Source: a bacterium UBP8_UBA817 (lineage in GTDB: Bacteria > Margulisbacteria > Marinamargulisbacteria > CAMDBA01). From it: 64,000 nucleotides of DNA. The DNA lies in NCBI GenBank assembly GCA_945888995.1, contig CAMDBA010000001.1:92603-156602 (forward strand). Direction: 5' to 3'. Shown one piece after another: positions 1 through 21,551 of the stretch. Positions within the stretch are counted from its first letter, which is position 1; each line of letters opens with the position of its first letter. A program made the translations under genes and the position numbers. The notes under the pieces were generated by a model. The model worked only from the letters and a program-made list of their open reading frames with translations, was not told the DNA's origin and ran no database searches.

Positions 1-276
1 AAAAATCTTCCGAACTTGGGGCCGCGTACAGACGACGCTGACCTTGCCGCCTTGCTTGGCGATCACATGCGAGGAATGGGCAATCGCGCCTAGACCTGTG
101 CTATCAATATATTGGACGTTTTCAAGATTGAGGATCAGGCGGATAGTGCCTTTATCAATCAGATCTTTCATTGCTTTGCTTAATTTTGGGCAGGTATAAA
201 TATCGATCTCCCCATTAACGCGTAAAATCGGAACGACTGCTTCTTCTTCCAGGTCCACTCTAAAATCCAAAACCAT
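1..276 (-). CDS. STAS-domain anti-sigma factor antagonist (3' end outside window)
   Basis: Manual translation from ATG 276 (GGAGG RBS upstream): MVLDFRVDLEEEAVVPILRVNGEIDIYTCPKL...LENVQYIDSTGLGAI; has the G-E-I-D and D-S-x-G-L phospho-Ser motifs. Confidence 0.85.
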   Translation of the reverse strand, partial: MVLDFRVDLEEEAVVPILRVNGEIDIYTCPKLSKAMKDLIDKGTIRLILNLENVQYIDSTGLGAIAHSSHVIAKQGGKVSVVCTRPQVRKIF

Positions 277-392
277 GTTGAACCTCCTATTAATGTCTAT
301 GACTCGTATATGAAGTGCTCATCCGGCATCAGTGCAAAGGCACTGTGGCAGTACTTTACTGTCAGTCATTATATAGGAATTAATTTCTTATA

Positions 393-647
393 TCAAATTT
401 TATGTTTGGCCAAAAGTGCGGTTAAATTTCCGGTTTCAGGCACACGATCGCCCAGAACACTTTGAGAGAAGGCAACGGCATCGGCACAGGGCTCAAGATC
501 GTCAGTCGACTGCCACTTACAATCCAAAATGATGCCGGAAACAGGATCCAGTTTGAAGTAGATCCGAAGCCTATTGTACGCGCAACACAAATCCGCCGGA
601 TAATACGACACGGCCTCAAGCCGGTTATCGGCCATAGCGAACCGCAT
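393..647 (-). CDS. Small degenerate IscU/NifU_N-like protein
   Basis: Abuts the desulfurase stop; LRIYFKLDPVSGIILDCKWQ resembles the IscU beta-sheet core; 84 aa. Confidence 0.5.
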   Translation of the reverse strand: MRFAMADNRLEAVSYYPADLCCAYNRLRIYFKLDPVSGIILDCKWQSTDDLEPCADAVAFSQSVLGDRVPETGNLTALLAKHKI

Positions 648-1799
648 TTAACGGCTCTCCCGAAGCGTTTTAATCATCGACGGCAAGACATCTAAGACGG
701 TCTGGATTTCAGCATGTGTTGTCGCTCGTCCAAAGCTAAACCGAACGGTGCTTCGCGCAAGCTCGGCATCTCCAGTCATGGCCATTAGTACATGAGACGG
801 TTCCGTAGAGCCTGTTGAACATGCCGATCCGCTTGAAATATAAATACCGACCATGTCGGACTTCATGACCAGAGAATCGCCGCTCACCCCTTTAAACGAG
901 ACACAAACAGTGCCGGGGACTGTCTCTGTAGCATGGCCATGAATCACGCAATCCGGGATAGCAGTAAGCCCTTCGCACAATTGACGCCGAAAGATCCGAT
1001 GACGGTCCGCGATGCCCACCCATTCATCCTTTAGCTTTTCAGCCGCTAATCCGAACGCTGTAATGCCGAGTACATTCTCTGTCCCGGCACGGATTTGCCG
1101 TTCTTGGGCCCCGCCGAAAAATAGAGGGGAAATATCGGCTGACTCCCGAATATATAAGGCCCCGACGCCTTTCGGCGCATAAAGTTTATGGCCTGAAAAT
1201 GAGGCATAATCAACCGCTATCTGACTCAGGTCAAAATGGATTTTCCCGATTGCCTGGACGGCATCAACGTGAAATAAACTTCCGTTTTCTCTTGCAATGA
1301 GGCCGATTTCGGCAATGGGCTGAATGGCGCCGACTTCATTATTTACTGCCATTACACTGATTAAGTGTGTATCAGGACGAAGACAAGAGACCAGGTGGCC
1401 CAGATCAATACGCCCGTTCCGATCAACCCGGACATAGGATACATCAACACCGAAACCTTGTAATACGGCCCCCATTTCCAGAACCGACGAATGCTCAATC
1501 GACGATATGACGACATGCGCACGATGACCTGATCGCCAGAATTCGTGCAATACCGAGTAAAATACATGATTATTGGATTCGGTCGCGGAACCGGTAAAGA
1601 TGATCTCGCTAGGCAATGCGCCTACCAATGCCGCAAGCTGATCCCGAGCGGTTTCTACTCTCTCTCTGGCATCGCGACCGGTGGCATATAAACTAGATGG
1701 ATTTCCGAATTCAGAGGTCCATTTTTTAAGAGCCTTGGTAACATCGGGATGCAACGGTGTCGTGGCATTATGATCTAAATAAATGGATGGACGCTTCAT
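648..1799 (-). CDS. iscS: Cysteine desulfurase (IscS/NifS type)
   Basis: YLDHNATTP, SGHKLYAPKG (PLP Lys), SSGSACS (catalytic Cys). Confidence 0.93.
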   Translation of the reverse strand: MKRPSIYLDHNATTPLHPDVTKALKKWTSEFGNPSSLYATGRDARERVETARDQLAALVGALPSEIIFTGSATESNNHVFYSVLHEFWRSGHRAHVVISSIEHSSVLEMGAVLQGFGVDVSYVRVDRNGRIDLGHLVSCLRPDTHLISVMAVNNEVGAIQPIAEIGLIARENGSLFHVDAVQAIGKIHFDLSQIAVDYASFSGHKLYAPKGVGALYIRESADISPLFFGGAQERQIRAGTENVLGITAFGLAAEKLKDEWVGIADRHRIFRRQLCEGLTAIPDCVIHGHATETVPGTVCVSFKGVSGDSLVMKSDMVGIYISSGSACSTGSTEPSHVLMAMTGDAELARSTVRFSFGRATTHAEIQTVLDVLPSMIKTLRESR

Positions 1800-2732
1800 C
1801 TAGGTGAGTTTTTCTAGTTGCCTCAGGAAAAGCTGATATAGAGATTCTCTCACCGTGACCTGCTGATTCAAAATGTCTTGAACCGAGCTCAAGGTCTGGG
1901 CTTTTGTTTTTTGATTGGAGAGAAGTTCGATTAAAAAATCCCGGGTTTTGACTCGCGTAATTTCTCTGATAATCGGGATTTTCGGAGAGGTGTACAATAG
2001 GTAATAGACCAATAATTTATCTAATAAAAACTGAATGTCCGATGTCGAGTTCTGGAATAACGGGCAAATCTGAATTTTATTTCCGGGTCCGATCGGAATT
2101 TCCAGGTCTTCGGGAAAAAACTGCTGAATATAAATCAGGAAAATATTGAGCTGCTCGGGGGGCAATCCGGAAATCAGGATAAATATGATATCGTCGTTTT
2201 CAGTCTTCGATGTCAGCAGACCGATATCAGGTGCGGACATAAGTCCTTGCAGCCTGAATTTAACCTGAACAATAGTCTTAAGATACTGCTCTAGCAGCAC
2301 ATAAATATACCGAGCCGTCTTCGGCGTAAAATGGCCGGTTTGTGCTGGAATGCCAAGAACGCGATTGGTTAGAAGCTTGAAAAAATCAGTGGTATCCCGG
2401 TTATACAATCCCCATGAAAATGTAGATTTAAGCCCATCTTCCCAGATAATGGTCACACCATCGTCTTTTTCGGTGACCCGGCGAATAGACGGAATCAGAA
2501 TGCCACGGTCCAGACTCAGAGCTAGCAACGCCAATAACTGAATATATGTCACGACTTCTTTGGCATTCACAAACGACTCATTTTTTTCAAAAAAATCAGG
2601 GGATTTCAAAATTCCCTTGAGGCGCTCAAATGCCGGCGATTGCGGCGAAAAATACGCGCTTAGAACCGGTAATTTGCCACCGATTAGTTTTAGCAGTTGA
2701 ATAGCTGTTGGTAGTGTATTCTTTGAGCTCAT
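1800..2732 (-). CDS. Hypothetical protein
   Basis: Long ORF whose stop abuts the iscS start; start ATG 2732 chosen (ORF open to 2759); no recognisable domain. Confidence 0.7.
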   Translation of the reverse strand: MSSKNTLPTAIQLLKLIGGKLPVLSAYFSPQSPAFERLKGILKSPDFFEKNESFVNAKEVVTYIQLLALLALSLDRGILIPSIRRVTEKDDGVTIIWEDGLKSTFSWGLYNRDTTDFFKLLTNRVLGIPAQTGHFTPKTARYIYVLLEQYLKTIVQVKFRLQGLMSAPDIGLLTSKTENDDIIFILISGLPPEQLNIFLIYIQQFFPEDLEIPIGPGNKIQICPLFQNSTSDIQFLLDKLLVYYLLYTSPKIPIIREITRVKTRDFLIELLSNQKTKAQTLSSVQDILNQQVTVRESLYQLFLRQLEKLT

Positions 2733-2803
2733 CAGATGTATTATACTGTATTTGTACATTATTGAGCATCAATACATCTGAACCTTTGTTACGGAGGATA
2801 CTT

Positions 2804-3496
2804 GTGGCCTATATTATCTGGATACTTACCCTATTTTTTATTCTTTCAGGTCCGCTCATGGCCAAAGACTATCCGAATCTGCTGAAATTCAGTGCGTATG
2901 ATAAATTCGGATTTGTTTACTATCTGGATTACAGTGTTGAGAAGAAAATCGCGGATAAATCCTCGCTTATTCAAATTACGACCACACGCTATGCGCCCGG
3001 CATCCGGGAAAAAAATATCACGACCCTTTCTAAGAGCAATGCGTTTCTGAGCCTCTCTCAAAGCACACAAGATATTCCGCAATCTCAGTTTTTCCAATGG
3101 AAAATTACCATGGCCAATAACGCGATGGTCACATACCGGAACATTGGGAGCCGGAGGTTGATTCACCAATTGACCCCGCTACCGCCCAACGCCTACCCTA
3201 GCCAGGCGCTCCCCTATTTATTAAATGACATTTTAGAAACATTGACGCCGGAAAAACTGATTTACCTGATTATGCCCCCATCGCAAATCGTGGAGTTAAC
3301 ACCCCGCGCCATTGGCATGGAAACGATTCTATTCAATGGTAAAGCGGTTCCCTGCTATAAAGTGGAGCTCGCACTCAAGAGTCATCTCGGATATGTTGGG
3401 TCGGTGATTAATTATTGGCTGACCATGGATAAACCACATATTCTGATAAAATCCAAAAGTCCGGATATCACCTTGATTTTGGATTCAATCAGATAG
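2804..3496 (+). CDS. Exported hypothetical protein
   Basis: GGAGG RBS before GTG 2804; hydrophobic signal-like N-terminus ending PLMA-K; beta-rich body. Confidence 0.65.
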   Translation: MAYIIWILTLFFILSGPLMAKDYPNLLKFSAYDKFGFVYYLDYSVEKKIADKSSLIQITTTRYAPGIREKNITTLSKSNAFLSLSQSTQDIPQSQFFQWKITMANNAMVTYRNIGSRRLIHQLTPLPPNAYPSQALPYLLNDILETLTPEKLIYLIMPPSQIVELTPRAIGMETILFNGKAVPCYKVELALKSHLGYVGSVINYWLTMDKPHILIKSKSPDITLILDSIR

Positions 3497-3509
3497 ATCG
3501 GATCTGCGC

Positions 3510-4106
3510 TTAGCGTCGATTGCGAAAACTGGTTAAAAGTGACCAATTCGAGCCATCCTGGCGGCCAAAAATATATCGCTGGTAGGCCAGAAAGACCATC
3601 AAAAACACGATAAAATTGACGAACAAATAACCCAATGGCAGCGGCTGCATCCAAATAATAACCATTGCAAATAGGACACTGGAAATCATCCCGATATAAA
3701 GAGAATTAGACACAAGAGATAACACCGCAACACTGATCGGAAAGATAAAAAATAGCGGCAGAAATACAAAACTGTAGATCCCCCATAGCACGTGGCCGAA
3801 AGACTGCCGGTTTTCAAATCCTGTTAGCGGAGACCAGTTATTCAGAAAGACAATAGCCCCTATCGCGACGAGTCTTACGGCATGCCCGTCGAAAAATACC
3901 GACGCCAGATATAAAAAAATATAGCCTTTTGCAAAATTCAGGAGGCGGGCCAGGCCAAACAAAAACGGCGCCTTCGAGACATAAACCGCCGGAATTCCCG
4001 TTGCTAGTTTTTTCTGAATGCCCCAGCTTTTATCATAGAGCCAGTCCAGCACCGTCTCTACCGGAATTGAGACAACAATTAAGAGAGTAATGAGATACAA
4101 AATCAA
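3510..4106 (-). CDS. PlsY-like membrane protein with degenerate catalytic motifs
   Basis: Multi-TM; VSIP, NFAKG and NNWSP align with PlsY GSIP, DxxKG and GHxxP; TTG start overlapping lysC stop. Confidence 0.6.
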   Translation of the reverse strand: MILYLITLLIVVSIPVETVLDWLYDKSWGIQKKLATGIPAVYVSKAPFLFGLARLLNFAKGYIFLYLASVFFDGHAVRLVAIGAIVFLNNWSPLTGFENRQSFGHVLWGIYSFVFLPLFFIFPISVAVLSLVSNSLYIGMISSVLFAMVIIWMQPLPLGYLFVNFIVFLMVFLAYQRYIFGRQDGSNWSLLTSFRNRR

Positions 4107-5344
4107 GATGGCGAGCCTATTTTCTGATCTAATTCGAACGCGGAGTGTAACAATACAAGCGCCTCTTTTGCGAACTGCTTTTCGATGACGCACGAGATCT
4201 TGATTTCAGAGGTCGAGATTAATTGGATATTGATGCCTTTGGCCCCGAGAACTTCGAACATTTGAGCAGCGATTCCAGCCTTTGAGATCATTCCGACACC
4301 CACAATTGATAGCTTTGCGATATTGTCATCGGTGACCACGCCTTTAGCGCCAAGTTCATCCGCTACAGCCTGGGTAATGGCCGCCGCTTGAGCCAGGTCA
4401 TCCGCATTTACAGTAAATGTGATGTTATTAATGTGATCCTGCTCAACACTTTGGATAATCATATCGACGTTAATATTCACATCCGCCAAGCGGGTAAATA
4501 ACTTTCCGGCGATCCCCGGTTGATCGGGCACTTTCAGAATCGCGATTTTGGCTTCTTCCTGATTCAAGGTAATCCCTGTTACCGCTCGTTGTATTTCCAT
4601 CTGAGAATCCTCCTTTACGCGGGTTCCTTCCTCTTGGCTGAACGAAGACCGCACATGCAGTATAATTTGATTTTCTTTAGCGCATTCCACTGATCGGGGG
4701 TGCAGGACTTTTGCCCCTAATGAGGCCAATTCGAGCATTTCGTCGTACGAAATTTCGGTCAGCTTCGTTGCATCCGAAATCAATCTCGGGTCTGTAGTAT
4801 AGACGCCGTCTACGTCGGTATAAATTTCGCATTCCTCAGCGCCTAAGGCCGCTGCCAACACGACAGCCGACGTATCCGATCCGCCGCGACCGATCGTAGC
4901 GACGTCGCCATTTTCGGTTGCGCCCTGAAATCCGGCGACGACTACCACCTGGCCTTCGCTCAATTCACATTTGATTCTGCCGGTATCGACACGAAGGATT
5001 TTGGCTCTGGAATAAATATTCTCGGTTTTGACACCAGCTTGAGGGCCTGTTAACGAAATGGCCGGAACCCCGATTTCCTGAAGGCCGATGGCCAACAACG
5101 AGGCGGAGATATTTTCACCAGTCGAAATGAGCTGGTCATATTCTCGGGAACTCGGTGAGCTCGACATGGTTTTGGCTAATCCGATCAGATCATCGGTGGT
5201 ATCACCCATCGCCGAGACGACGACGACGACATGCTTATAGAGTTTGGCAGATTGAGCCACACGCTGGGCAACAGCTTTGATGCGTTCCGGAGACCCGACT
5301 GAGGTTCCCCCGTATTTTTGAATAATGATGTCATGTTTAAACAT
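4103..5344 (-). CDS. lysC: Aspartate kinase
   Basis: QKYGGTSVG, VVSAMGDTTD, GRGGSDTSA, two ACT domains. Confidence 0.95.
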   Translation of the reverse strand: MFKHDIIIQKYGGTSVGSPERIKAVAQRVAQSAKLYKHVVVVVSAMGDTTDDLIGLAKTMSSSPSSREYDQLISTGENISASLLAIGLQEIGVPAISLTGPQAGVKTENIYSRAKILRVDTGRIKCELSEGQVVVVAGFQGATENGDVATIGRGGSDTSAVVLAAALGAEECEIYTDVDGVYTTDPRLISDATKLTEISYDEMLELASLGAKVLHPRSVECAKENQIILHVRSSFSQEEGTRVKEDSQMEIQRAVTGITLNQEEAKIAILKVPDQPGIAGKLFTRLADVNINVDMIIQSVEQDHINNITFTVNADDLAQAAAITQAVADELGAKGVVTDDNIAKLSIVGVGMISKAGIAAQMFEVLGAKGINIQLISTSEIKISCVIEKQFAKEALVLLHSAFELDQKIGSPS

Positions 5345-5450
5345 TACAGTAACTACCGCCTTGGTAAAAAATAGTCGGCTAAAACAGCTAAAAACTATAT
5401 CAGACGAATTCTTACAAGTGAATATAGCATGGACCTGGTCGGATAGGGTG

Positions 5451-5978
5451 CTACTTCCCTTTCTTCTTCATCTCCACCGATTTTATAATTCGATCTACAT
5501 ACTGCTGAGTTTCTGGATACGGCGGGATCGTCTTGTACTTGTCTACCACGCCAGGGCCTGCATTATAGGCGGCCAGAGCGAGTTTTAAGCTGTAATCATA
5601 CTTCACTAAGAGAGACTTAAAATAACGCGCCCCACCGTCGATATTCTGGGCAACATCAAAAGGGTCGTCGACACCGAGCCACTTCGCGGTATCAGGCATC
5701 AGCTGCATCAAACCCACGGCGCCTACCGGGGAGACGGCATTGGGGTTAAAGCCCGATTCGGCACGGATTATTTCGGTGAGAATCACGGGGTCAAGGCCAT
5801 GGCGTTGGCTATTGCGATTGATATGATCCTGAATTTCAGGAGAGGGCCCGAAAATACGTCCCGCAATGCCTTTTAAATAATCGGAAAGCCTGACCACCCC
5901 GCCCACCATATCTTGTTTGATTTGGGCTAATTGGGCGACCAGGCTTTCAAGATCAGAGAAGAAAGATCCCGATTTCAT
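5451..5978 (-). CDS. Lytic transglycosylase (SLT domain)
   Basis: AESGFNPNAVSPVGAVGLMQLMP, ALAAYNAG. Confidence 0.92.
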   Translation of the reverse strand: MKSGSFFSDLESLVAQLAQIKQDMVGGVVRLSDYLKGIAGRIFGPSPEIQDHINRNSQRHGLDPVILTEIIRAESGFNPNAVSPVGAVGLMQLMPDTAKWLGVDDPFDVAQNIDGGARYFKSLLVKYDYSLKLALAAYNAGPGVVDKYKTIPPYPETQQYVDRIIKSVEMKKKGK

Positions 5979-12217: not shown

Positions 12218-12237
12218 CAAATTTCCTCCCCTACGCG

Positions 12238-12266
12238 CCCCAGCCAAAAGCACGTGTTGGCCGGGG
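12238..12266 (-). promoter_or_regulatory. GC-rich hairpin just 5' of the fabZ-lpxA RBS
   Basis: Minus strand CCCCGGCCAA...TTGGCTGGGG, 10-bp stem with one G-U pair. Confidence 0.4.
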
Positions 12267-12570
12267 ACCCCAATATTATTAGCTTGTTATTTTGGCACTA
12301 ATTAAAAACGACGCCAATGATTCTTTCTAGAATGGGGTATGCTCCCGACGCTTTTCATCCGAGCATTTTTCATACGCGATATATTTTTCATTCCATTGTG
12401 GCATTAATTGGGGCTTACGCCAATTGCCCCCTCGTAAGACAGGACGCTTACTTAGAAGCGGCTTTGTGTTATATTAAGAAATATCGATGTTTACTGAGGC
12501 AGCTCGAGTGGAACTTAGTGTGAAAGTTGACACTTTATATGTGCCCACGCCCCCCCTCAAGGAGATGTAA

Positions 12571-12666
12571 ATGAAAAGACATACCACCCCGCTTTTCGCG
12601 GCCTTTAGCTCAAGCCGAAACCCGAATATCGATGCTCAAGAAGCGATGGCTCAGGTCTGCAAATAA
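12571..12666 (+). CDS. Putative 31-aa peptide MKRHTTPLFAAFSSSRNPNIDAQEAMAQVCK
   Basis: AAGGAG at 12559-12564, 6 nt before the ATG; stop 4 nt before the ATG (12671) of the next gene; below the ORF-track cutoff. Confidence 0.5.
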   Translation: MKRHTTPLFAAFSSSRNPNIDAQEAMAQVCK

Positions 12667-12670
12667 AACC

Positions 12671-14752
12671 ATGCCTATTATTTATCCGATGTTGGGACGA
12701 CTCCATTATTTCTACCTGAAAGTTGTACAGAGTTACTCTGAGATTGTTTTTTTACAGAATAAGGTTGTCGGCTTTATCTTACTTGGCCTCAGCTTTTTGA
12801 ACCCATTTGCCGGTATCGGCGGGCTCATTGCGGTTCTATCGGCTTATTCTTTTGCGGCGCTCTTAGGGTTTAGAAAGAGATTCACGAGCGCAGGCTTTCA
12901 TATTTACAACCCCCTGCTGGTCGGCTTGGCGATCGGCTCGAAATTTTCGGTAACACCTACTTCACTGCCTCTTCTTGTCATAGGTGGCGTTGTCTCATTT
13001 ATCATCACACTGTCTCTTGCTCGCTTTTTGACGACGTGTTTAGACTGCCCCGTCTTAAGTTTGCCATTTTCGGCTACCACGCTGCTGATTTATATGGGGA
13101 TGAGTCAGCTTGGTGTCTTGGGCCTTACTTCACCGCATGGTTATATTGCCCCCGATCTGAGCCCTCTTCCGTATTGGCTCACCGGCTACCTTCACGCACT
13201 CGGCAATCTTTTTTTCTTGCCTACTATCATGGTGGGGGCTCTGATTGCCATCCTTTTGATCGCGTCTTCACGGATATTGTTTGCGCTCAGCTTTTTTGGG
13301 TATATCCTCGGGTCCTTTCTCCAAGGCTTTTATAGCGGACTACCGACCTCCGGGTTCAATGATCCTAATGGCTTTAACTATGCGCTGAGCGCCATGGCGT
13401 TAGGCGGTGTGTTTGTCGTGCCCGGTCTTCGTTCAATCCTTATAGCCACGATCGGCGTCTGTATGACAACACTGGTCCTCAAGGCTACTAATGTTTTTCT
13501 GGCACCTTACGGGATACCGGTTTTTACGCTTCCCTTTGCGATAGTCACTCTTGCCTTTATCTCGACGATGAGTGCCGTTCGCTTTTCGGAACGCCCCCAA
13601 ATCATGAAAGCGACGCCAGAGGAAACCAGGGATCATTTTAAGACTGTTACCGCGCGGTTCAGCCCAGATTTGGCCATTGCATTTCCGTTCAATGAAAACT
13701 GGACCGTATGGCAAGGATTTGACGGGAAATGGACCCATCAAGGCCTCTGGAAATATGCGGTTGATTTCGTGATCACCGATCTGAACGGTCGGACATATTC
13801 CGCCGACGGAACGCGGCTTGATCATTATTATTGCTACCAAAAACCAGTCTTGTCTCCCGTTCGCGGGCAGGTCATACGCGTAGTAGACTTTCTTCTCGAT
13901 AATCCGATCGGAACCGTTGATACCCAAAACAACTGGGGAAATTTTGTCCTGATCCGCCACGACTCCGGCCAAATTGTTAAATTGTGTCATTTCACCTATC
14001 AGGGGATCGGGGTAAGCGAAGGGACTCATGTGGAAGTCGGAACCTATCTCGGGTTATGCGGAAATTCTGGCTATTCACCCCAACCACATGTCCACCTTCA
14101 TGTCCAAATGACACCTGAATCAACCAGTCCGACAATTCCGTTCTGCTTTTCGGCCTATATTCATCGGGACCGTTTTTTTACCTATGCCCGACCGAATGAA
14201 GGAGAGGTAGTCCACTCCTTTCAAACACTTCCATTCTATGATCAGCTCACGACTTTTATTTTGGACGACGAATTGGACTTTGACGTTTATATGCATGGTC
14301 AAAAGGTCGATCGCACCAAAATGCGAGTGGCGATGGCGGAGGATGGGACATTCTATTTCTCGACTAAGAGCTCCAAACTCTACTTTGGGAAATCCTCCGG
14401 AACATTTTATTGCTATCACCTCGACGGCTTTGACCCTTACCTCAGAATGCTCTATATGGCGCTACCTAAACTGCCGTTGTCGTGGGAACCCTGCCTGAAA
14501 TGGTCGGATGTGCTTCCCAATTCGGTGGCACTTACACCGATCCAACGACGCTGTTGGGAATTTATGGCCCTATTGTGGCCCGGTAAAACATCTGCCGACT
14601 ACTACTTTGTTTCCGAAACGGAAATCGAAGGTGTGATTCACGGCAGATTCTTGAATAAAACGCAACGAACGTATGTTCAGCTCGATCCCTATTTACGCCT
14701 GAAGTGTGTTCGATGCGATTTCGGCGAATTAAGGAGGGCCACCACTACCTAA
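12671..14752 (+). CDS. Urea-transporter-family membrane domain fused to M23 metallopeptidase and an unknown C-terminal domain
   Basis: About 10 TM segments with UT-like repeats (YSEIVF..YNPLLVG; GNLFF..GFNYAL; PVFTLPF); M23 motifs THQG..AVDF, WGNFVLIRH, GNSGYSPQPHVH; ORF open from 12632. Confidence 0.8.
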   Translation: MPIIYPMLGRLHYFYLKVVQSYSEIVFLQNKVVGFILLGLSFLNPFAGIGGLIAVLSAYSFAALLGFRKRFTSAGFHIYNPLLVGLAIGSKFSVTPTSLPLLVIGGVVSFIITLSLARFLTTCLDCPVLSLPFSATTLLIYMGMSQLGVLGLTSPHGYIAPDLSPLPYWLTGYLHALGNLFFLPTIMVGALIAILLIASSRILFALSFFGYILGSFLQGFYSGLPTSGFNDPNGFNYALSAMALGGVFVVPGLRSILIATIGVCMTTLVLKATNVFLAPYGIPVFTLPFAIVTLAFISTMSAVRFSERPQIMKATPEETRDHFKTVTARFSPDLAIAFPFNENWTVWQGFDGKWTHQGLWKYAVDFVITDLNGRTYSADGTRLDHYYCYQKPVLSPVRGQVIRVVDFLLDNPIGTVDTQNNWGNFVLIRHDSGQIVKLCHFTYQGIGVSEGTHVEVGTYLGLCGNSGYSPQPHVHLHVQMTPESTSPTIPFCFSAYIHRDRFFTYARPNEGEVVHSFQTLPFYDQLTTFILDDELDFDVYMHGQKVDRTKMRVAMAEDGTFYFSTKSSKLYFGKSSGTFYCYHLDGFDPYLRMLYMALPKLPLSWEPCLKWSDVLPNSVALTPIQRRCWEFMALLWPGKTSADYYFVSETEIEGVIHGRFLNKTQRTYVQLDPYLRLKCVRCDFGELRRATTT

Positions 14753-14800
14753 AAAAAGCACGAAAAAACGTCTCAATTATCATTCGAAAGGAGAAAAAAC

Positions 14801-15649
14801 ATGATTAAAGAATTTGGAATTAGACTCGCAACCTTACTCATCGTTGCCACTGTTTGGTGTCCTGCTGCGTCGTATGCGCTGAGTATGACGACTGCTGCTT
14901 ACTATATTCCCAGCACCTATACGACCTCAGCCAAGGCAAATACAAACGTCGGCGGCTTTTACGGGTTTTTCGGTCAGGACCAGCACGCTTTGGAGATTGG
15001 ATTTGACCAAATTACGTTGGCCTCAACCGGTGCCGCCGTTCAACATAATTACCTCGGCATTTACACCTATTACATGCCGACTTCCGCCTATAAGATCGGC
15101 TATCTTCGGATTAACACTCCGACCGACTTTGCCAATATGGTGCTAGTTGGGGGTGAGTGGGATACCTACAATTCTTACGGCTATAAAGACTGGTCGGCAG
15201 GCTTGGACGTCTACACGTCATTTTATAACCTCACAACCGGGCGACCTCTTCTTATCCAAGGGACGCCCTCGTATACGAAACACTTTCAAGCCTTTGATTT
15301 ACCGGGATCATTTGAATTCAATCCTAAATTGAATATCGAGTACAACCTCGGCCAACGTCGGTTCTACAACAATGCGGAACTTGCCATGAAGTACTACATG
15401 AACCCTGCTTGGACCTTTGGTGTCCGCTATTGGACCGGAGAATCAGTTTACGGTGTATCAAATGGTGGATTTGTCGTGAACAATACCGATGACGTGGTCA
15501 AACAAGGATACGCAATCAACGCAACCTATGCGATCACGCCACAGTTGTCGACGGTTCTGTCGTATCAATCGAATACGATGTCAAATTCGGCCATCTTGGG
15601 AGACTTTAGTCAAAACAAGATCTCATACATGCTCATGTACAACTGGTAG
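14801..15649 (+). CDS. Putative outer-membrane beta-barrel protein
   Basis: AAGGAG RBS; signal peptide ending ASYA; Tyr/Gly/Asn-rich alternating strands; C-terminal YMLMYNW. Confidence 0.7.
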   Translation: MIKEFGIRLATLLIVATVWCPAASYALSMTTAAYYIPSTYTTSAKANTNVGGFYGFFGQDQHALEIGFDQITLASTGAAVQHNYLGIYTYYMPTSAYKIGYLRINTPTDFANMVLVGGEWDTYNSYGYKDWSAGLDVYTSFYNLTTGRPLLIQGTPSYTKHFQAFDLPGSFEFNPKLNIEYNLGQRRFYNNAELAMKYYMNPAWTFGVRYWTGESVYGVSNGGFVVNNTDDVVKQGYAINATYAITPQLSTVLSYQSNTMSNSAILGDFSQNKISYMLMYNW

Positions 15650-15687
15650 AAATTTTAGAAAATTTTTAGAAGGAGACCTATTCAATC

Positions 15688-16398
15688 ATGAAATATCTTA
15701 TACTATGTTTATTAATCGGAGGCATGGGCCTAAGTATTCCGGCCCATGCAGTACTTAGCTCAGCTGACATCCAAGGTGCTTATTTAAAATCCTATGACGC
15801 TGAGAAAAAAGGGAAATTGGACGACGCGGTCAAAGCCCTGGAGTCTGTTACAAAGGACTATCCCAACGGTTACACTCTCAACCTTCGCCTGGCTTATTTG
15901 AATTATAAGAACAAAAAGCACCCAGCTGCTTTGGAAAATTATGACAAGGCAAACCAAGCTCTACCTTACTCCCTTGATCCAAAGCTAGGTAAAATGGTAG
16001 TTCTTGGCACCCAAGAGCGCTATGCGGACGTCGAAGCTGTGGGATATCAGGTTTTAAACCTGGACTACCTTAACTATTCAGGAAACCTTCGGTTGGCCTA
16101 TGCATTAAGAATGCAAAAGAAGTATGACATTGCCGAAAAGGTCGCTTTGAAGATGTTGAGTTTGTACCCTGTCGATATTTCGTTCTTAACGGAATATGGC
16201 ATTCTGCTCTACCTCAAGGATCTTCAAAAATCCAAGAACGTCTTTCAAGACATCTTGATCTTAGATCCTAACAATACGGCGGCAAAAGACTATATCAAGC
16301 TCATCGACAAGCTTCTCACGCCGAGCTCGAGTGCAGCAGTGCCAGTTGCAAAACCGGCTGAAGCGACATCTGCTTTCTCCGGAAAAATTAAAAAATAA
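15688..16398 (+). CDS. Secreted tetratricopeptide-repeat protein
   Basis: AAGGAG RBS; signal peptide ending AHA; helical repeats (LRLAYL twice, LDPNNTAA). Confidence 0.8.
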   Translation: MKYLILCLLIGGMGLSIPAHAVLSSADIQGAYLKSYDAEKKGKLDDAVKALESVTKDYPNGYTLNLRLAYLNYKNKKHPAALENYDKANQALPYSLDPKLGKMVVLGTQERYADVEAVGYQVLNLDYLNYSGNLRLAYALRMQKKYDIAEKVALKMLSLYPVDISFLTEYGILLYLKDLQKSKNVFQDILILDPNNTAAKDYIKLIDKLLTPSSSAAVPVAKPAEATSAFSGKIKK

Positions 16399-16417
16399 GA
16401 TTGGGGTTAGGTTCCAT

Positions 16418-19093
16418 ATGGACGCGTTTGACCTACATTATCATCGATTAGAAATATGGAACCTGCTGGCGAAGGAGCTTGAGCTCAACGCCAGCGACAC
16501 CCTTGATTCGATCTTAACCGAACTCCGGTCCATCGAACGCTATTGGGCGTTTCCCGGACCGGAGGTTCTCGACAAAATCGCGACCTATTATGAGCAAGAC
16601 AGTATTTATAGGCTTGGGCAATTGGTTACAAATATCATCTCAATGCTGTCATCTCAGTCCTACCGATACCGGACATTTGCCCCATTCTCTACTCCACTTT
16701 CACTATTGGATAAGCCCATCCTGGTGGAATCTCCCGATACGCCTCCCGACACTTTTTCAGAACGGCCCAAGAGACCGTATTTCGAGGTCCTCATCGTCCA
16801 TACGGATCACTCAGCGTATGAGACACGTTTTCGAAAAACACTTCACGAGCTTCAAGGCGAGCATGACGAATTCTTGTATGAACCGATCTTTGTCACCAGC
16901 GCCGGAGACGCCCTCACCGCTGTGATGTGCAATCCGATGATTCAGGCTTGTGTGATTTTTGAAAATATTGGACCCGATGATCCGACGTGTCATGTTCTGG
17001 CACAGGACTATCGCAAGTTTTTACCAGCATATGAGACGCCCCATCTCGCTCACTCCACCGCGGCTCTCGGAAAAGTACTCCGCGACCTCCGACCGGAACT
17101 GGATCTTTACTATATGGCCGAAACCGCCTCTCATCAACTCGATGAGACGATTCGCAGTCGGTTTGACCGGGTCTTCCATGCATCCAGCGTTTTACAAGAT
17201 TTACATGCTCACCTTTTAAACGGCATCCGTGAACGTTTCTCAACCCCGTTTTTTCACGCGCTTCAGGCCTATAGCCGCAAGCCCGCTGGGGTTTTTCATG
17301 CATTACCGATCTCCCGTGCGAATTCGCTGCATGACTCGGCATGGACGCAGGACATGCTTCATTTTTACGGGCGCAATATATTTATGGCGGAGACGTCGGC
17401 TACGTTGGGGGGACTCGACTCCCTCCTTGATCCTAAAGGCTGCCTTAAACAATCGATCGAGCTGGCGGCCCGAACCTTTTCTGCCGATAAAACCTATTTT
17501 GTCACCAACGGTACGTCCACCGCAAACAAGATCGTGTTACAGGCGACGTTATGCCCGGGCGACATTGTATTGCTTGCATCCGAGAGTCATAAATCGATTC
17601 CCTACGGTCTTTTGCTCTGCGATGTTATCCCCATTTTTCTAGAATCCTATCCTATCTGCACACATGATTTATCCGGTGCCGTGAGCTGTGACCGGATCAA
17701 AGACGTCTTGCTCGACCTAAAACGTCAAGGCCTACTTTCACGTGTAAAACTGATCTCTCTGACGAATTCGACCTTTGACGGCATTCTTTATAATGTCAAA
17801 AAATTTATGATGGAAATTCTCGCAATTAAGCCGGATATTATTTTTCACTGGGATGAGGCCTGGTTTGCCTATGGTGGGTTTAATCCCCTTTATCACCACC
17901 GAACGGCTATGAATTCGACAAATCGGCTCAAGCAACAGTTTAAGGACCCTGCCTACCAAGCCTTTTTCGACGTATGGAATGCCCGCTTTTCTCAGCTCGA
18001 CCCGACTTCACGCAGCACCTGGGACCAACCGCTTTTTCCTGATCCCAGCCAAGTAAAACTGCGCGTATATGTCACACAATCGACTCATAAGACTCTTTCT
18101 GCGTTTCGGCAGGGATCGATGATTCATATAATAGATGATGCTTTTGAGGCTCCCCGGTTTGTTGAATCCTACCGGATGCATACTTCAACTTCACCGAACT
18201 ATCAGATTTTGGCTTCACTCGATATCGGACGGCGCCAGGTCGCATTGGATGGTTTTGAACTGGTTAAAAAAGCCGTTTATATCGCCTCAAAAATTCGCTG
18301 CAGTATTCGAGAATCCGAGACTCTACAGCGTTATTTCACTCTATTGGAAGACCATGACCTCGTTCCCGAAGCTCATTTTTCACGCGATTGTGTGAAGGCA
18401 CCTTCCGGTGAATACGCAAGGCTCTTTAGCCGCTGGCAGGACCAAGACTTTGTGGTCGATCCCACGAGGATCACCTTAGACATTCGCAAGACGGGCATGT
18501 CAGGACCTAGTTTTAGAGAATTGTTGGCTACTCGTTACAACCTTCAGGTCAACAAGACCTCTCGCTTTACGGTTTTATTTATCGTAAATATCGGGTCTAA
18601 TCAGGCATCTGCTGAGTATTTGGTGAGGATTTTACGTGAAATCGCCGCCACCCTATCCACAGCTCCCGCCGATCATAGCGCCGCCGCTCTACACACCGCG
18701 GCATTAAGCCAAAGTCGCAAGTTCTACTCTGCATTTCGGGCATTCGGAACCGAGTCCTGGCAAGGTGTCTACCTCCGAGATGCCTATTATCAAGCCTACC
18801 AAACTGACGCAACCGAGCATATACTTCTTGACCAGGATGCGCTCCTTATTCCTTTTGGCGATGCTCCGCTTATATCCGCCGGATTTGTCACGCCATACCC
18901 GCCGGGATACCCTATTCTTGTCCCAGGGCAGATCGTCACCTTGGACATTCTTGAGTATCTGATGAGCCTCCAAACACCCGAAATTCACGGTTATATCCCG
19001 AGTGAGGGACTAAAAGTATTCAAACCTAGCTATCTTGCCACCTTAAAACAGAAAGTCGAAAGTAATGCCATCATCACCCCCATTTCCTCTTAA
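16418..19093 (+). CDS. Large fold-type-I PLP amino-acid decarboxylase (Orn/Lys/Arg family, Rv2531c-like)
   Basis: GGLDSLLDP, FVTNGTSTANK, TNSTFDG, WDEAW, QSTHK (PLP Lys), TSTSPNYQI, PYPPGYP; N-terminal ERYWAFPG and wing domain. Confidence 0.88.
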   Translation: MDAFDLHYHRLEIWNLLAKELELNASDTLDSILTELRSIERYWAFPGPEVLDKIATYYEQDSIYRLGQLVTNIISMLSSQSYRYRTFAPFSTPLSLLDKPILVESPDTPPDTFSERPKRPYFEVLIVHTDHSAYETRFRKTLHELQGEHDEFLYEPIFVTSAGDALTAVMCNPMIQACVIFENIGPDDPTCHVLAQDYRKFLPAYETPHLAHSTAALGKVLRDLRPELDLYYMAETASHQLDETIRSRFDRVFHASSVLQDLHAHLLNGIRERFSTPFFHALQAYSRKPAGVFHALPISRANSLHDSAWTQDMLHFYGRNIFMAETSATLGGLDSLLDPKGCLKQSIELAARTFSADKTYFVTNGTSTANKIVLQATLCPGDIVLLASESHKSIPYGLLLCDVIPIFLESYPICTHDLSGAVSCDRIKDVLLDLKRQGLLSRVKLISLTNSTFDGILYNVKKFMMEILAIKPDIIFHWDEAWFAYGGFNPLYHHRTAMNSTNRLKQQFKDPAYQAFFDVWNARFSQLDPTSRSTWDQPLFPDPSQVKLRVYVTQSTHKTLSAFRQGSMIHIIDDAFEAPRFVESYRMHTSTSPNYQILASLDIGRRQVALDGFELVKKAVYIASKIRCSIRESETLQRYFTLLEDHDLVPEAHFSRDCVKAPSGEYARLFSRWQDQDFVVDPTRITLDIRKTGMSGPSFRELLATRYNLQVNKTSRFTVLFIVNIGSNQASAEYLVRILREIAATLSTAPADHSAAALHTAALSQSRKFYSAFRAFGTESWQGVYLRDAYYQAYQTDATEHILLDQDALLIPFGDAPLISAGFVTPYPPGYPILVPGQIVTLDILEYLMSLQTPEIHGYIPSEGLKVFKPSYLATLKQKVESNAIITPISS

Positions 19094-20567
19094 AAGTTTC
19101 CGGCAAATCAAGACCTACTGGGCGAAGAACCGCGTGCCGTTCTATTTTATCAGCGGGACAGTTTTTAATCTCATGAATTTCGATCAATGGGTTCGACGGT
19201 TTACATTTATCCCATTTATTGATGTGGATGATGCTCGCAATAGAGCCGTATTCTGTCCCGACACACAGGGCTTTACGATGTTCCGATCTTCGGAAGAGTT
19301 GGTGAAATACCTGCTCGGACATAAGTCCGTTATAGAAAAAATCGCCCGGGATCGCCGTGGTTTGCCTGAATCGGAGAAAAAGAGTCAAGCCTTGTTTCTG
19401 TTTTTTGACTCAGAAGTCGAGGAGATCTGTGCCCAACTGGGAATAAATCGCTGTATGTCTGGGCATAAAATTTCAAAAATGCTAGACAACAAAATCGTCA
19501 CCACTCAACTCGGTAATAAAGTCGGGGTGAAAAGCGTTCCAAATGTTCTGGCTCACGTCGATAGCTATAAAACCTTAAAACGTTTGGCCCAGATCCACCA
19601 CCTCAGTGACGCGCTTGTGGTCCAAACTGCATACGGAGATTCGGGTAAAACCACCTACTTCATCCAAAACGAAGACGACTATAACCACTATCGCACTTAT
19701 ATCGAACGTGAATCTCAAGTCAAAGTTATGAAGCGTATTTCATGTTCTAGCCTTGCGATTGAAGCGTGTGCAACACGGTGTGGAACGTTTGTAGGGCCTT
19801 TAATGGGAGAGCTGATCGGGGTTCCGTCTTTGACACCTTTTAAGGGAGGATGGTGCGGCAATGATACGAATCCTCGTTTATTTTCCGATGAGATACGGAC
19901 CCAGGCGCAAGCGATGACGGTTCGCCTTGGCAATGCCCTATACAAAAAAGGATATAAGGGATGCTTCGAGGTCGACTATTTAATCGATCGGGAATCCGGA
20001 GAGCTTTATCTCGGAGAGTTAAACCCTCGGATCAGCGGCATCACTGCTTTAACGACTTTCTCTGCAAAAGCGCCCGACATGCTTCCGCTTTTTCTCTTTC
20101 ATCTGATGGAGCACACAGACGTTGAGTTTGACCTTGATCCTGAACTATTCAATAAAATCACCCGTCATCGCGCCAGTCTTAGCGGCGGGGGCCAACTAAT
20201 CTATAAATATACCGGGCATGATCTTAAGATGATCGACTCAGCGCCAGTCTCTGGTGTTTATCAACTCGATGAAAAGGGCATGCTTATTCTTAAGACAGAA
20301 AGTACAAAACGAGAAGAGGCCGTAGGCCATAACGAGGTTTTTTTAATGCGGCTAATGAAAGAAGGCGAGTATGCATATAAAGGGTGTGATTTGGCCATTT
20401 TGTTCGTCAATACACCTCTCTTAGGGCCGAAATTTGGTCTTACTCCCGCCGCAAGGCGTTGGATTTCAGCTGTAAAAATGGCTTATCAAATCCGCCCCCT
20501 TACCCTCGAAGAACAGGCCATAGTCGACCGTTACACCAACCCCGGTGTCAGGCTTAAAGGAGGTTAG
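19065..20567 (+). CDS. ATP-grasp amide ligase ('biotin carboxylase'-annotated type)
   Basis: LDNKIVTT, VVQTAYGDSGKTT, GCFEVDYL, YLGELNPRISG (ExNxR). Confidence 0.8.
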   Translation: MPSSPPFPLKSFRQIKTYWAKNRVPFYFISGTVFNLMNFDQWVRRFTFIPFIDVDDARNRAVFCPDTQGFTMFRSSEELVKYLLGHKSVIEKIARDRRGLPESEKKSQALFLFFDSEVEEICAQLGINRCMSGHKISKMLDNKIVTTQLGNKVGVKSVPNVLAHVDSYKTLKRLAQIHHLSDALVVQTAYGDSGKTTYFIQNEDDYNHYRTYIERESQVKVMKRISCSSLAIEACATRCGTFVGPLMGELIGVPSLTPFKGGWCGNDTNPRLFSDEIRTQAQAMTVRLGNALYKKGYKGCFEVDYLIDRESGELYLGELNPRISGITALTTFSAKAPDMLPLFLFHLMEHTDVEFDLDPELFNKITRHRASLSGGGQLIYKYTGHDLKMIDSAPVSGVYQLDEKGMLILKTESTKREEAVGHNEVFLMRLMKEGEYAYKGCDLAILFVNTPLLGPKFGLTPAARRWISAVKMAYQIRPLTLEEQAIVDRYTNPGVRLKGG

Positions 20568-21551
20568 GTGATGACATCAGGATTACATAAACGGTTTCGA
20601 TCTGTTTCGGAAGTGCACCCGAATCAGCAATGGGAACACCTCTACCAGGCCTCAAAGTCTCACTATATTCAGTGGTTCTTAAAAGAAGGGGAGTTTAACC
20701 GTCCGAGTTATCGTGAGTGTGCCCGGGCTTTGGAGACCTATATGCCGGAACTCGTGCCGATGTGGAAGCACTTGGTCACTCTGTCCGGTGGCGGAGATCT
20801 TAATGCGCGGATGTTGAGTTTGTATTGTCATACACCTTTTGCATCTGGATGTTCCCAGGCCGTCTGGACACGGTATCAGCCAATTTTAGTCCGGAATTAT
20901 GACTACGATATTAACAAATGTGAAGGCCTTATTTTGAAGAGCCGTTGGCATGATACGGAGGTCATCGGGTCAACAGATTGTCTATGGGGAATTTTGGATG
21001 GCATGAATGCCCATGGACTTGCGGGGTCGCTATCATTTGGCGGACGTGATGAGATCGGTGCGGGGTTTGCCATCTCTCTGATCCTCCGCTATGTTCTGGA
21101 ATTTTGCAAAACGACCGAAGAGGCAATCGCTGCGCTTTGCCGAATCCCGTCTCATATGGCATATAACGTGACGCTTTTAGATGCGAATTCACACGTTACA
21201 ACCGTGGAGATTTCGCCTATGGGCCCACCTGAAATCACCAATCATCCTGTTTCAGTGAACCATCAGGGCGAGTTTGAGCTCACCGAGTACACGAAGTTCT
21301 GTCGATCTTACGAACGGGAACAAGTTTTATATGACCGGCTCTACGACCCTTCGATCACACTCGAGTCTTTTGTGAACGGGTTCGAATACGCCCCGCTTCG
21401 CGTGACCGAATACGGACAGGGGCTTGGTACATTATATACCGCCGTCTACAACCCATCGTTACGTGCAATGGAATATCGGTGGCCCAACCACAAACGGCTC
21501 TACCAATCTTTTAACGCGTTTGACGAGGGAGAAGTCGACGTTCGGTATTAA
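20568..21551 (+). CDS. C45-family Ntn hydrolase/acyltransferase
   Basis: Autocleavage site G|CSQ, LVRNYDY, LDGMNAHGL, VNHQ; AAGGAGG RBS; no signal peptide. Confidence 0.85.
   Translation: MMTSGLHKRFRSVSEVHPNQQWEHLYQASKSHYIQWFLKEGEFNRPSYRECARALETYMPELVPMWKHLVTLSGGGDLNARMLSLYCHTPFASGCSQAVWTRYQPILVRNYDYDINKCEGLILKSRWHDTEVIGSTDCLWGILDGMNAHGLAGSLSFGGRDEIGAGFAISLILRYVLEFCKTTEEAIAALCRIPSHMAYNVTLLDANSHVTTVEISPMGPPEITNHPVSVNHQGEFELTEYTKFCRSYEREQVLYDRLYDPSITLESFVNGFEYAPLRVTEYGQGLGTLYTAVYNPSLRAMEYRWPNHKRLYQSFNAFDEGEVDVRY

Follow-up and report, generated by a model that had tools for sequence, protein, structure and literature searches.

Which small molecule would be handled, and in which direction, by an operon that joins three enzymes to an inner-membrane channel, a periplasmic repeat protein and an outer-membrane barrel? 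This question is raised by six genes at positions 12571 to 21551 of a 64,000-nucleotide (nt) stretch of contig CAMDBA010000001.1, which as a whole is referred to as the window and derives from a genome of 1.04 Mb in 15 contigs (76% complete). An initial annotation had read the genes as a candidate system for the synthesis and export of an amide or poly-amino acid, and this interpretation is partly supported by the analysis described here. The operon is viewed below as a small-molecule system around the probable formation of gamma-aminobutyric acid (GABA), rather than as a polymer exporter or a cell-wall modifier. In agreement with the initial annotation, which knew of no characterised pathway with this gene set, no published description of the combination was found in the literature searched.

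The operon and its recurrence

The following features of the window constitute the locus, including pyridoxal phosphate (PLP)-dependent, tetratricopeptide repeat (TPR), urea transporter (UT)-family and N-terminal nucleophile (Ntn) proteins (ORF, open reading frame; aa, amino acids):

12571..12666, + strand: 31-aa leading ORF, overlapping the start of the channel gene
12632..14752, + strand: UT-family channel with M23 domain and C-terminal domain, 706 aa (PF03253, PF01551)
14801..15649, + strand: predicted outer-membrane beta-barrel, 282 aa, with a signal peptide read by eye and a C-terminus ending in YNW
15688..16398, + strand: secreted (periplasmic) TPR protein, 236 aa (TPR families; signal peptide read by eye)
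16418..19093, + strand: long-form PLP decarboxylase, 891 aa (OKR_DC_1, 234.5 bits; match to Rv2531c)
19065..20567, + strand: ATP-grasp protein of the PRK06524 type, 500 aa (NF005096)
20568..21551, + strand: C45 Ntn hydrolase/acyltransferase, 327 aa (NF040521, PF03417)

The six genes from the channel-M23 gene to the C45 gene are tightly packed on the + strand, with gaps of 48, 38, 19, -29 (an overlap) and 0 nt in operon order, and they are flanked on either side by housekeeping genes of the - strand. The coordinates, gaps and strands thus confirm the co-oriented, closely spaced set opposite to its flanks that had been described initially, and the family scans bear out the domain calls for the UT-M23, TPR, decarboxylase, ATP-grasp and C45 proteins. 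The frame of the decarboxylase is open from a GTG at 16331 (920 aa), and the homologue alignments begin at the ATG at 16418. The small leading ORF, which had been counted with the operon, is probably not a gene, since the 400 nt preceding the channel gene encode no similar peptide at 14 related loci. A cluster of the graspetide type (ribosomally synthesised and post-translationally modified peptides) was considered separately and rejected, as no conserved counterpart of this ORF, which might act as a precursor peptide, was found in these 400 nt at the 14 loci. Mobility families were not found among the 17 proteins scanned in the window, as the initial annotation had stated, and the G+C content of the cluster (0.43-0.51) is similar to that of the flanks.

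The gene set recurs in nine related-genome loci (eight genomes, as L010 and L115 are one contig) and in seven metagenome loci, the latter with a second gene order of channel, TPR, enzyme trio, barrel and TPR. This recurrence confirms that the operon is real and conserved and that its arrangement is beyond chance; together with the tree described below, it upholds the idea of a conserved, co-inherited unit. Among 146 species genomes of the window's phylum, the ATP-grasp was detected in 12, a strong UT match in 11 and both in 10. Seven of eight relatives' loci feature channel, barrel, decarboxylase, ATP-grasp and C45 genes in the order of the window, six of these seven with the TPR gene, and a ninth genome has the same order. 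At a further locus of the phylum (G023), ATP-grasp and C45 are the only genes of the set within reach, with a nitrilase-family amidase located 6 kb upstream. In loci with the second order, the C45 gene is followed by pairs of barrel and TPR genes in up to three repeats (L037, 8512-12104; also downstream in L034 and L041).

Near-identical DNA is present in 15 lake, river, freshwater and drinking-water runs from seven studies, one of which is possibly the source. Moreover, fragments of all six genes occur at 95-100% identity in four freshwater RNA libraries (three studies), where some contigs span the junctions 14752/14801, 15649/15688 and 16398/16418 and only parts of the operon are covered. 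These fragments are a weak hint of transcription, with DNA carry-over being possible, and even the contigs across junctions do not demonstrate one common transcript.

The enzyme trio and its GABA contexts

The most informative match within the operon is that of the decarboxylase. It aligns with Rv2531c of Mycobacterium tuberculosis (PDB 9n0o/9n0n) at an E value of 1e-181, residues 8-885 of 891 corresponding to 10-897 of 9n0o_A, and this one alignment spans all parts of a four-domain architecture, i.e., the N-terminal helical, receiver-like, catalytic and C-terminal domains. According to two reports, Rv2531c is a long form with extra N-terminal helical and receiver-like domains (PMC12329521, 2025, cryo-EM), which decarboxylates L-glutamate, not lysine, ornithine or arginine, and feeds the GABA shunt (PMC13506015, 2026; genetics, metabolomics and enzymology). 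The latter report names H405, K406, K570, R576, T606, R718 and N731 as PLP and glutamate residues, the role of R576, T606, R718 and N731 at the glutamate side chain being derived from modelling (PMC13506015). The window enzyme has equivalents of each of these residues, and the STHK and HK motifs align. Among 49 cluster-linked homologues, H405, K570, R576, T606 and N731 are kept in all 49 and K406 in 48, while the position of R718 is taken by arginine in 17 and lysine in 32. Due to the full-length match and the kept substrate residues, GABA is the likely product, and the window decarboxylase probably forms it from L-glutamate.

The ATP-grasp protein scored 481 bits against NF005096 (PRK06524, 'biotin carboxylase-like'), under the cut-off of 684, and 0 of the 12 ATP-grasp matches in the phylum reach this cut-off, which makes the protein a relative rather than a threshold member of the PRK06524 group. 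The glycine-rich loop GDSGKTT as well as E302, E318, N320 and R322 are invariant in 18 homologues. In a protein atlas, only generic 'putative biotin carboxylase' clusters were retrieved. The acetyl-CoA and pyruvate carboxylase models gave 15-20 bits at cut-offs of 597-1147, and the family scan found no biotinyl-carrier family in the operon. The AlphaFold2 (AF2) model of the protein (pLDDT 88.1) has its nearest folds tied at Z 21-23, namely PurK and biotin carboxylase (Z 22-23), PylC and PurT. PurK and biotin carboxylase carboxylate nitrogen, whereas PylC and PurT form amides; because of this tie, the reaction type is not fixed by the fold.

The C45 protein exceeded the cut-offs of both NF040521 (144.8 bits; cut-off 85) and PF03417 (113.2 bits; cut-off 23.2). 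Its Cys95 is found in 47/47 homologues and the preceding Gly94 in 42/47, and the R-N-x-D motif (R109, N110, D112) is kept in 47/47. With the Gly-Cys self-cleavage site retained, the protein is predicted to be an autoproteolytic Ntn hydrolase or acyltransferase. Both enzymes belong to large groups of relatives, 5712 by word-index search for the ATP-grasp and 1274 for C45. Across the protein searches for relatives of the ATP-grasp, the M23 and C-terminal part of the channel, and C45, coinciding lengths of the longest contigs (e.g., 39428, 40727, 154498, 240732, 44398, 45899 and 81408) weakly suggest that several pairs share a contig; no such coincidence was noted for Persephonella among the 120 best entries, which carries no weight. 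From family chemistry and the strict gene pairing, the ATP-grasp would use ATP to build GABA, or a compound closely derived from it, into a linkage of the amide or carbamate type, and the self-processing C45 cysteine hydrolase would cleave or transfer this linkage. With the Rv2531c-type decarboxylase converting L-glutamate to GABA and CO2, these steps would form the first module of the operon. The sequence originally proposed, from a decarboxylase product via ATP-dependent amide chemistry to hydrolysis or transfer by C45, is still the most economical logic.

The cohesion of the three enzymes was examined in metagenome loci. A metagenome scan seeded by an alignment of 18 ATP-grasp sequences yielded 80 loci, in which tblastn detected the decarboxylase in 61 and C45 in 65. 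Of these loci, 22 had no less than 7 kb of upstream and 4.2 kb of downstream sequence (well-flanked loci). Both the decarboxylase and C45 were present in 22/22, and thus decarboxylase, ATP-grasp and C45 form a unit. A nitrilase-family amidase accompanied them in 21/22, and the channel in 1/22, this one locus being without the amidase. The halves of the operon are hence separable, which speaks against part of the initial interpretation: 21 of the 22 well-flanked loci have enzymes and amidase with no channel, and one genome described below has the envelope genes without the ATP-grasp. The other part stood, as the complete set does co-occur, within one clade. The operon is accordingly composed of two separable modules, the enzyme trio and the envelope set.

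The relation of channel and amidase was followed in a quick IQ-TREE tree of 78 ATP-grasps. All 15 of the 15 channel-linked ATP-grasps fall into one clade of 18 (SH-aLRT 100), whose three remaining rows are too short-flanked to tell. The sister of this clade is the amidase-type locus G023 of the same phylum (support 99). Members of the channel clade come from four families of the window's phylum, from seven metagenome loci and, by name, from Shewanella. The replacement of the amidase by the channel seems to have happened once, with inheritance and spread thereafter. Five carrier genomes were searched for the nitrilase-family amidase of the cluster type and gave no close orthologue, the best matches having 29-39% identity over parts of the protein.

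The genes surrounding the trio give the second line of evidence for GABA. In the metagenome loci, recurrent neighbours are a class-III aminotransferase, an aldehyde dehydrogenase matching the succinate-semialdehyde dehydrogenase (SSADH) model (710 bits, cut-off 646), TAXI-TRAP transporters and universal stress proteins. A plasmid of Chondrinema litorale carries SSADH, gabT, amidase, decarboxylase, APC permease, ATP-grasp and C45 genes, and in a Roseobacter ponti plasmid gabT lies nearby, followed by amidase, decarboxylase, ATP-grasp, C45 and a peptide-type ABC system. In a Rhizobium leguminosarum symbiosis plasmid (L122, NZ_CP016290.1, 4246-11471), the trio is divergent from nifHDKE and is followed by an ABC transporter, an amidase and a MurR/RpiR regulator; altogether, 15 Rhizobium and 11 Sinorhizobium plasmid records contain the ATP-grasp. 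In Shinella and Roseateles, the ATP-grasp/C45 pair occurs without the long decarboxylase, next to an agmatinase-family gene, 5-guanidino-2-oxopentanoate decarboxylase, an aldehyde dehydrogenase and a D-amino-acid dehydrogenase. The route from arginine via 4-guanidinobutyrate ends in GABA and urea. Since gabT and SSADH neighbours as well as this arginine operon link the pair to GABA independently of the decarboxylase, GABA formation appears to be the common denominator of the ATP-grasp/C45 contexts, beyond the decarboxylase alone. Among the enzyme-only clusters, many give the impression of catabolic units, in which importers are found besides GabT-like and SSADH-like genes. This bears on the caveat of the initial annotation that the cluster might match a characterised catabolic pathway: the catabolic appearance is there in many relatives, yet no characterised pathway with the set was found in the literature searched.

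Several further observations were made at these loci. The arginine-type operons of Shinella (L119, 13779-15566) and Roseateles (L121, 12798-14585) contain a 595-aa 'alanine racemase', and the Shinella copy, which was scanned, comprises an alanine-racemase N-terminal domain and an arginase-family domain in the same operon as ATP-grasp and C45. The order amidase (CN hydrolase), ATP-grasp, C45, decarboxylase, SSADH-like gene and aminotransferase is found in L044, L070, L085 and L101. Upstream of the trio region, L044, L070 and L085 have an M24/creatinase-type hydrolase, and L070, L085 and L101 an AstE/AspA-family deacylase with an AsnC regulator, genes which we take to resemble doeA, doeB and doeX of ectoine degradation. 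Ectoine catabolism was rejected as an explanation of the operon, as most loci, like the window, lack such DoeA/DoeB/AsnC-like genes. Likewise rejected was a novel 5-oxoprolinase feeding glutamate, which conflicts with the Shinella context. In seven marine loci (L057, L058, L075, L077, L083, L090, L092), genes for PqiA-like, MlaD-domain (PqiB-like) and ABC_trans_aux (PqiC-like) proteins lie just downstream of the trio, probably as lineage synteny.

The envelope set

The second module begins with the 706-aa channel protein. Its residues 31-333, approximately, match PF03253 (UT) with 182.7 bits (cut-off 25), residues 350-500 of the same polypeptide match PF01551 (M23) with 39.1 bits (cut-off 28.7), and residues 500-706 form a beta-rich C-terminal domain for which no Pfam family was found (domain limits approximate). 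In the AF2 model (pLDDT 87.6), UT helices extend to residue 315 and are followed by beta-rich domains. Foldseek related the model to the urea transporter of D. vulgaris (3k3g; E 1.6e-14, TM(target) 0.79) and to lysostaphin/LytM-type M23 domains (E about 1e-5). Both LPF motifs (P145/F146, P301/F302) are invariant in 15 channel homologues, as are the M23 residues H369, D378, H453, H486 and H488. The first His-Asp pair of the M23 domain is spaced H-x8-D, where HxxxD is usual for M23. Against the Yut equivalog TIGR03441, the protein reached 111.5 bits at a cut-off of 274.6, and by this threshold it is not a Yut protein. The M23 and C-terminal part has 705 relatives by protein search, and of the best 120 of these, 118 also carry the UT domain and four carry TPR repeats at the C-terminus. 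Named carriers of channel-M23 relatives include Shewanella, Persephonella, Hydrogenothermus, Calditrichia, Verrucomicrobiota and Marinamargulisbacteria, among others, and a scan of viral contigs with the channel alignment found no relative. In one related genome (L017, G019:C4, 3671-5757), the channel-M23 gene is represented by two neighbouring ORFs, which correspond to residues 31-455 and 449-703 of the channel protein described here, the cluster being complete in all other respects.

M23 domains are usually peptidoglycan endopeptidases, and the initial annotation had offered amine decoration of peptidoglycan as an alternative function. A system for decorating or remodelling the cell wall, with the M23 domain acting on it, would be in line with this general role and with the weak NCBIfam matches of the M23 part to MepM/ShyA-type enzymes. 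The topology argues otherwise. UT-family termini are cytoplasmic, the M23 domain begins after the tenth and last channel helix, and no further membrane helix follows in the AF2 model. In addition, three natural channel-TPR fusions have a hydrophobic helix (assigned by eye) that separates the C-terminal domain from the secreted-type TPR part, which places the M23 domain on the cytoplasmic side. Because no helix follows the channel and one precedes the TPR part in the fusions, the M23 and C-terminal domains are most likely cytoplasmic, as judged from the model and from inspection of the fusions. The M23 domain is also absent from three otherwise complete clusters. Modification of peptidoglycan is, consequently, the least probable of the explanations considered and can be regarded as highly improbable.

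The periplasmic and outer-membrane parts are small proteins. The TPR protein, whose signal peptide ends in AHA (by eye), matches TPR_16 (40.5 bits) and other TPR families, besides a weak match to TPR_Slam (17 bits, cut-off 35). The barrel protein gave only sub-threshold family matches; nine homologues are encoded at the corresponding place of related loci, and homologues have C-termini ending in F, W or L. A complex predicted for TPR residues 22-215 and barrel residues 28-282 scored 0.00 in both runs, a value which was not used for or against binding. More telling are the natural fusions, which join the channel via a transmembrane helix to TPR repeats and TPR repeats to a barrel; for this reason, channel, TPR protein and barrel probably constitute one trans-envelope assembly. 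The second type of fusion was found in a genome of another class of the same phylum (G066, 95% complete), which carries the following gene set:

260..5716 of G066:C59 (L113): fold-III PLP decarboxylase, channel-M23, TPR-barrel fusion (464 aa) and TPR gene

In this fusion, encoded next to the channel on its downstream side, a signal peptide and a TPR-like stretch are combined with a barrel whose last residue is F. The decarboxylase belongs to the fold-III class (LysA/FslC-like, with scores below the cut-offs), and a search of this genome for the ATP-grasp gave no match. Two in-frame stops close to the 5' part divide the channel frame into two ORFs, which may reflect a pseudogene or an assembly error.

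A secreted TPR protein and a barrel are also the outer part of known polymer exporters, and the TPR-barrel fusion of G066 fits this pattern. Moreover, the ATP-grasp enzymes RimK and cyanophycin synthetase polymerise amino acids. On these grounds, the operon could be taken to make a polyamide or an amine-modified peptide and to export the polymer by a synthase-dependent route, as had been proposed in the initial annotation on the pattern of AlgK/AlgE, PgaA and BcsC. This proposal is not supported. A synthase, a glycosyltransferase or any other polymer-translocating inner-membrane protein is absent from the seven ORFs of the locus, and the inner-membrane component present has the narrow fold of a small-solute channel. 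With 236 and 282 aa, the TPR protein and the barrel are small, AlgK/AlgE-, PgaA- and BcsC-type parts being far larger. Besides, the same enzymes occur mostly without export parts and together with catabolic genes. Polymer export is thus very improbable.

The decarboxylases next to the envelope set raise a different thought. Glutamate decarboxylation consumes protons, and the system might serve acid or pH and energy homeostasis, with neutral products or counter-solutes such as CO2, ammonia or an amide leaving by the envelope route and the ATP-grasp/C45 pair merely tuning the GABA pool. The glutamate type of the window enzyme agrees with this, as do the universal stress protein genes near several enzyme-only clusters and the unrelated decarboxylase beside the envelope set in G066, which would make decarboxylation the common partner. 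The organism, by the labels of the sequencing runs, is a plankton member of neutral freshwater, however, and a glutamate/GABA antiporter (APC permease) is absent from the window operon, while one lies inside the Chondrinema cluster. The ATP-grasp/C45 pair is furthermore kept as strictly as the decarboxylase, unlike a mere accessory. A role in homeostasis is therefore considered improbable, albeit less so than the export of a polymer.

Direction of flow and comparison with known systems

The reading that we favour, tentatively and with clear reservations, assigns the formation or processing of a small amide derived from GABA to the cytoplasm and its passage to a small-solute conduit. The first module would supply and modify GABA as set out above. 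The second would consist of the inner-membrane UT-fold channel with its cytoplasmic M23 zinc hydrolase and C-terminal domain, and the periplasmic TPR protein and the small outer-membrane barrel would complete a route for a small, uncharged, amide-like solute; this path is deduced from fold, topology and the natural gene fusions and is to be understood as a model. The UT fold passes small neutral amides. As the amidase and the M23 domain are both amide hydrolases, the channel has the UT fold and urease is missing (0/5 channel-type genomes with urease alpha, at a completeness of 92% or more in four), a small GABA-derived amide is the most suitable candidate for the species handled. In most other bacteria, the cytoplasmic nitrilase-family amidase, together with GabT-like and SSADH-like genes and importers, stands in for the second module, and the amide would there be hydrolysed and burnt to succinate; in the clade of the window, it would instead cross the envelope. 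The formation or opening of 2-pyrrolidone is a possible example of such chemistry. Outward flow is considered more likely than inward flow.

Several points weigh against this reading. UT proteins are equilibrative channels, usually for uptake, and the enzyme-only clusters adjoin importers of the TAXI-TRAP, ABC and APC types. The fold tie of the ATP-grasp model leaves ligation and carboxylation both possible. The glutamate specificity of the window enzyme is deduced from residues that were proposed by modelling, and most Rv2531c mutants were reported to be unstable (PMC13506015). Because the G066 genome pairs the envelope set with an unrelated decarboxylase, this set may serve decarboxylation generally and not amide chemistry. 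The mutual exclusion of channel and amidase is suggestive only and carries little statistical weight, as it reflects one evolutionary event. The M23 domain is dispensable, being absent from three channel homologues at related loci that keep the C-terminal domain. Finally, SSADH was found above its cut-off in 1/5 channel-type genomes, which fits export but is not proof of it; class-III aminotransferases are present in 5/5.

The main rival is the reverse direction of flow. Barrel, TPR protein and channel would then import urea or a small neutral amide, which the ATP-grasp would activate and trap at the expense of ATP (e.g., by N-carboxylation like PurK or urea carboxylase, in this case without biotin), C45 would release ammonia, and the decarboxylase would run alongside for pH balance or GABA supply. 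The fold and signature of a urea transporter are well accommodated by such uptake, and the lack of urease in the channel-type genomes would call for another consumer of urea or amide. The nearest ATP-grasp folds include the N-carboxylating PurK and biotin carboxylase, the pair in Shinella and Roseateles adjoins agmatinase/guanidinobutyrase-type and arginase-domain genes, whose products release urea, and the importers next to the enzyme-only clusters point in the same direction. Most enzyme-only clusters, though, are without a urea-forming enzyme and always with the glutamate-type decarboxylase, and the strict linkage of this decarboxylase to the pair is left unexplained. Besides, the amide-forming PylC and PurT tie with the carboxylases, and the biotin carboxylase models gave 15-20 bits only. 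Taken together, uptake with ATP trapping is possible but rather unlikely.

The export of a GABA-derived amide also has a more far-reaching form. In this joint reading, a newly recognised class of glutamate decarboxylase would feed a new ATP-grasp/Ntn pathway with GABA, leading to a small amide or lactam, and a new envelope conduit, coupled to cytoplasmic decarboxylases, would release the product outside; both parts together being true is doubtful, to about the same degree as uptake. The ATP-grasp/C45 pair, to which no reaction is assigned, is very common; it occurs among bacteria of marine, soil and freshwater habitats and also next to nifHDK on the symbiosis plasmids of rhizobia. As the partner decarboxylase family was assigned as a glutamate decarboxylase only in 2026, the use of GABA by the pair is now testable. 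If the joint reading is correct, the position of the pair beside nifHDK would point to a GABA-derived metabolite in symbiosis. The UT fold, in turn, is met here in a new setting, i.e., fused to M23, tied to TPR and barrel proteins and in genomes without urease, and a channel that conducts a solute other than urea would, if this is true, widen both the solute range and the architectures of the UT family.

The surroundings of the operon comprise LpxB and a FabZ-LpxA fusion upstream, and prephenate dehydrogenase, chorismate mutase, a BPL/LplA-family (biotin/lipoate ligase) protein, RibF and TruB downstream. The apparent fusion, directly upstream of LpxB, is a 416-aa ORF (11003-12253, - strand) with a FabA/FabZ-like dehydratase domain (17-134) and a full LpxA (hexapeptide repeats, Acetyltransf_11). 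In L035 (14046-17088), homologues of LpxB, LpxA and FabZ lie on the opposite strand 2-5 kb downstream of a channel-type cluster and resemble the lpx neighbours of the window, which may be a coincidence. The lpx genes are separated from the operon by 380 nt, within which lie a 68-aa ORF (12317-12523, + strand) without a family match and, inside this ORF, a terminator-like hairpin (12445-12460). A promoter and terminator scan yielded fewer sites than were obtained in shuffled sequences.

Among known systems, the synthase-dependent exporters with AlgK/AlgE, PgaA or BcsC, as well as Slam, share the secreted TPR protein and the barrel with the operon, to which the G066 fusion and the weak TPR_Slam match may be added; they differ by the much larger size of these parts, whereas the window has no synthase and an inner-membrane channel for small solutes. 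The bacterial urea channels (dvUT; Yut of Yersinia) have the same fold (TM 0.79) and the duplicated LPF signature. Unlike them, the window channel is fused to M23 and an extra domain, has TPR and barrel partners and belongs to carriers without urease (0/5). Urea carboxylase/allophanate hydrolase and PurK are comparable with regard to the ATP-grasp fold neighbours and the urea-type channel in the operon, which lacks, in contrast to urea carboxylase, a biotin carrier or carboxyltransferase domain. From Gad-type acid resistance, the operon is distinguished by the absence of a glutamate/GABA antiporter.

The logic of the enzyme trio has its closest counterparts in the Puu pathway (PuuA/PuuD) and in glutathionylspermidine (Gsp) synthetase/amidase, a likeness of logic only, for which no sequence relation was found or sought. 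Both combine an ATP-dependent ligase and a cysteine-type amidohydrolase around a decarboxylase-made amine, and Puu is catabolic and ends in GABA. The families are others than those of the window pair, PuuA being glutamine-synthetase-like, PuuD class-I amidotransferase-like and the Gsp amidase a CHAP protein. Rv2531c itself (PDB 9N0N/9N0O/9N0P) is matched by the window enzyme over its full length of four domains with the PLP lysine and the glutamate residues kept; the difference lies in the context, as the window gene is locked to ATP-grasp and C45, and the available parts of the papers on Rv2531c mention no ATP-grasp, operon or neighbourhood for it. The GABA shunt (GadB, GabT, GabD), finally, probably has its first step, glutamate to GABA, in common with the operon, and in many bacteria the trio is accompanied by GabT- and SSADH-like genes. 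In contrast to the shunt, the window operon is without GabT and SSADH and adds two enzymes from outside the textbook pathway together with an envelope route.

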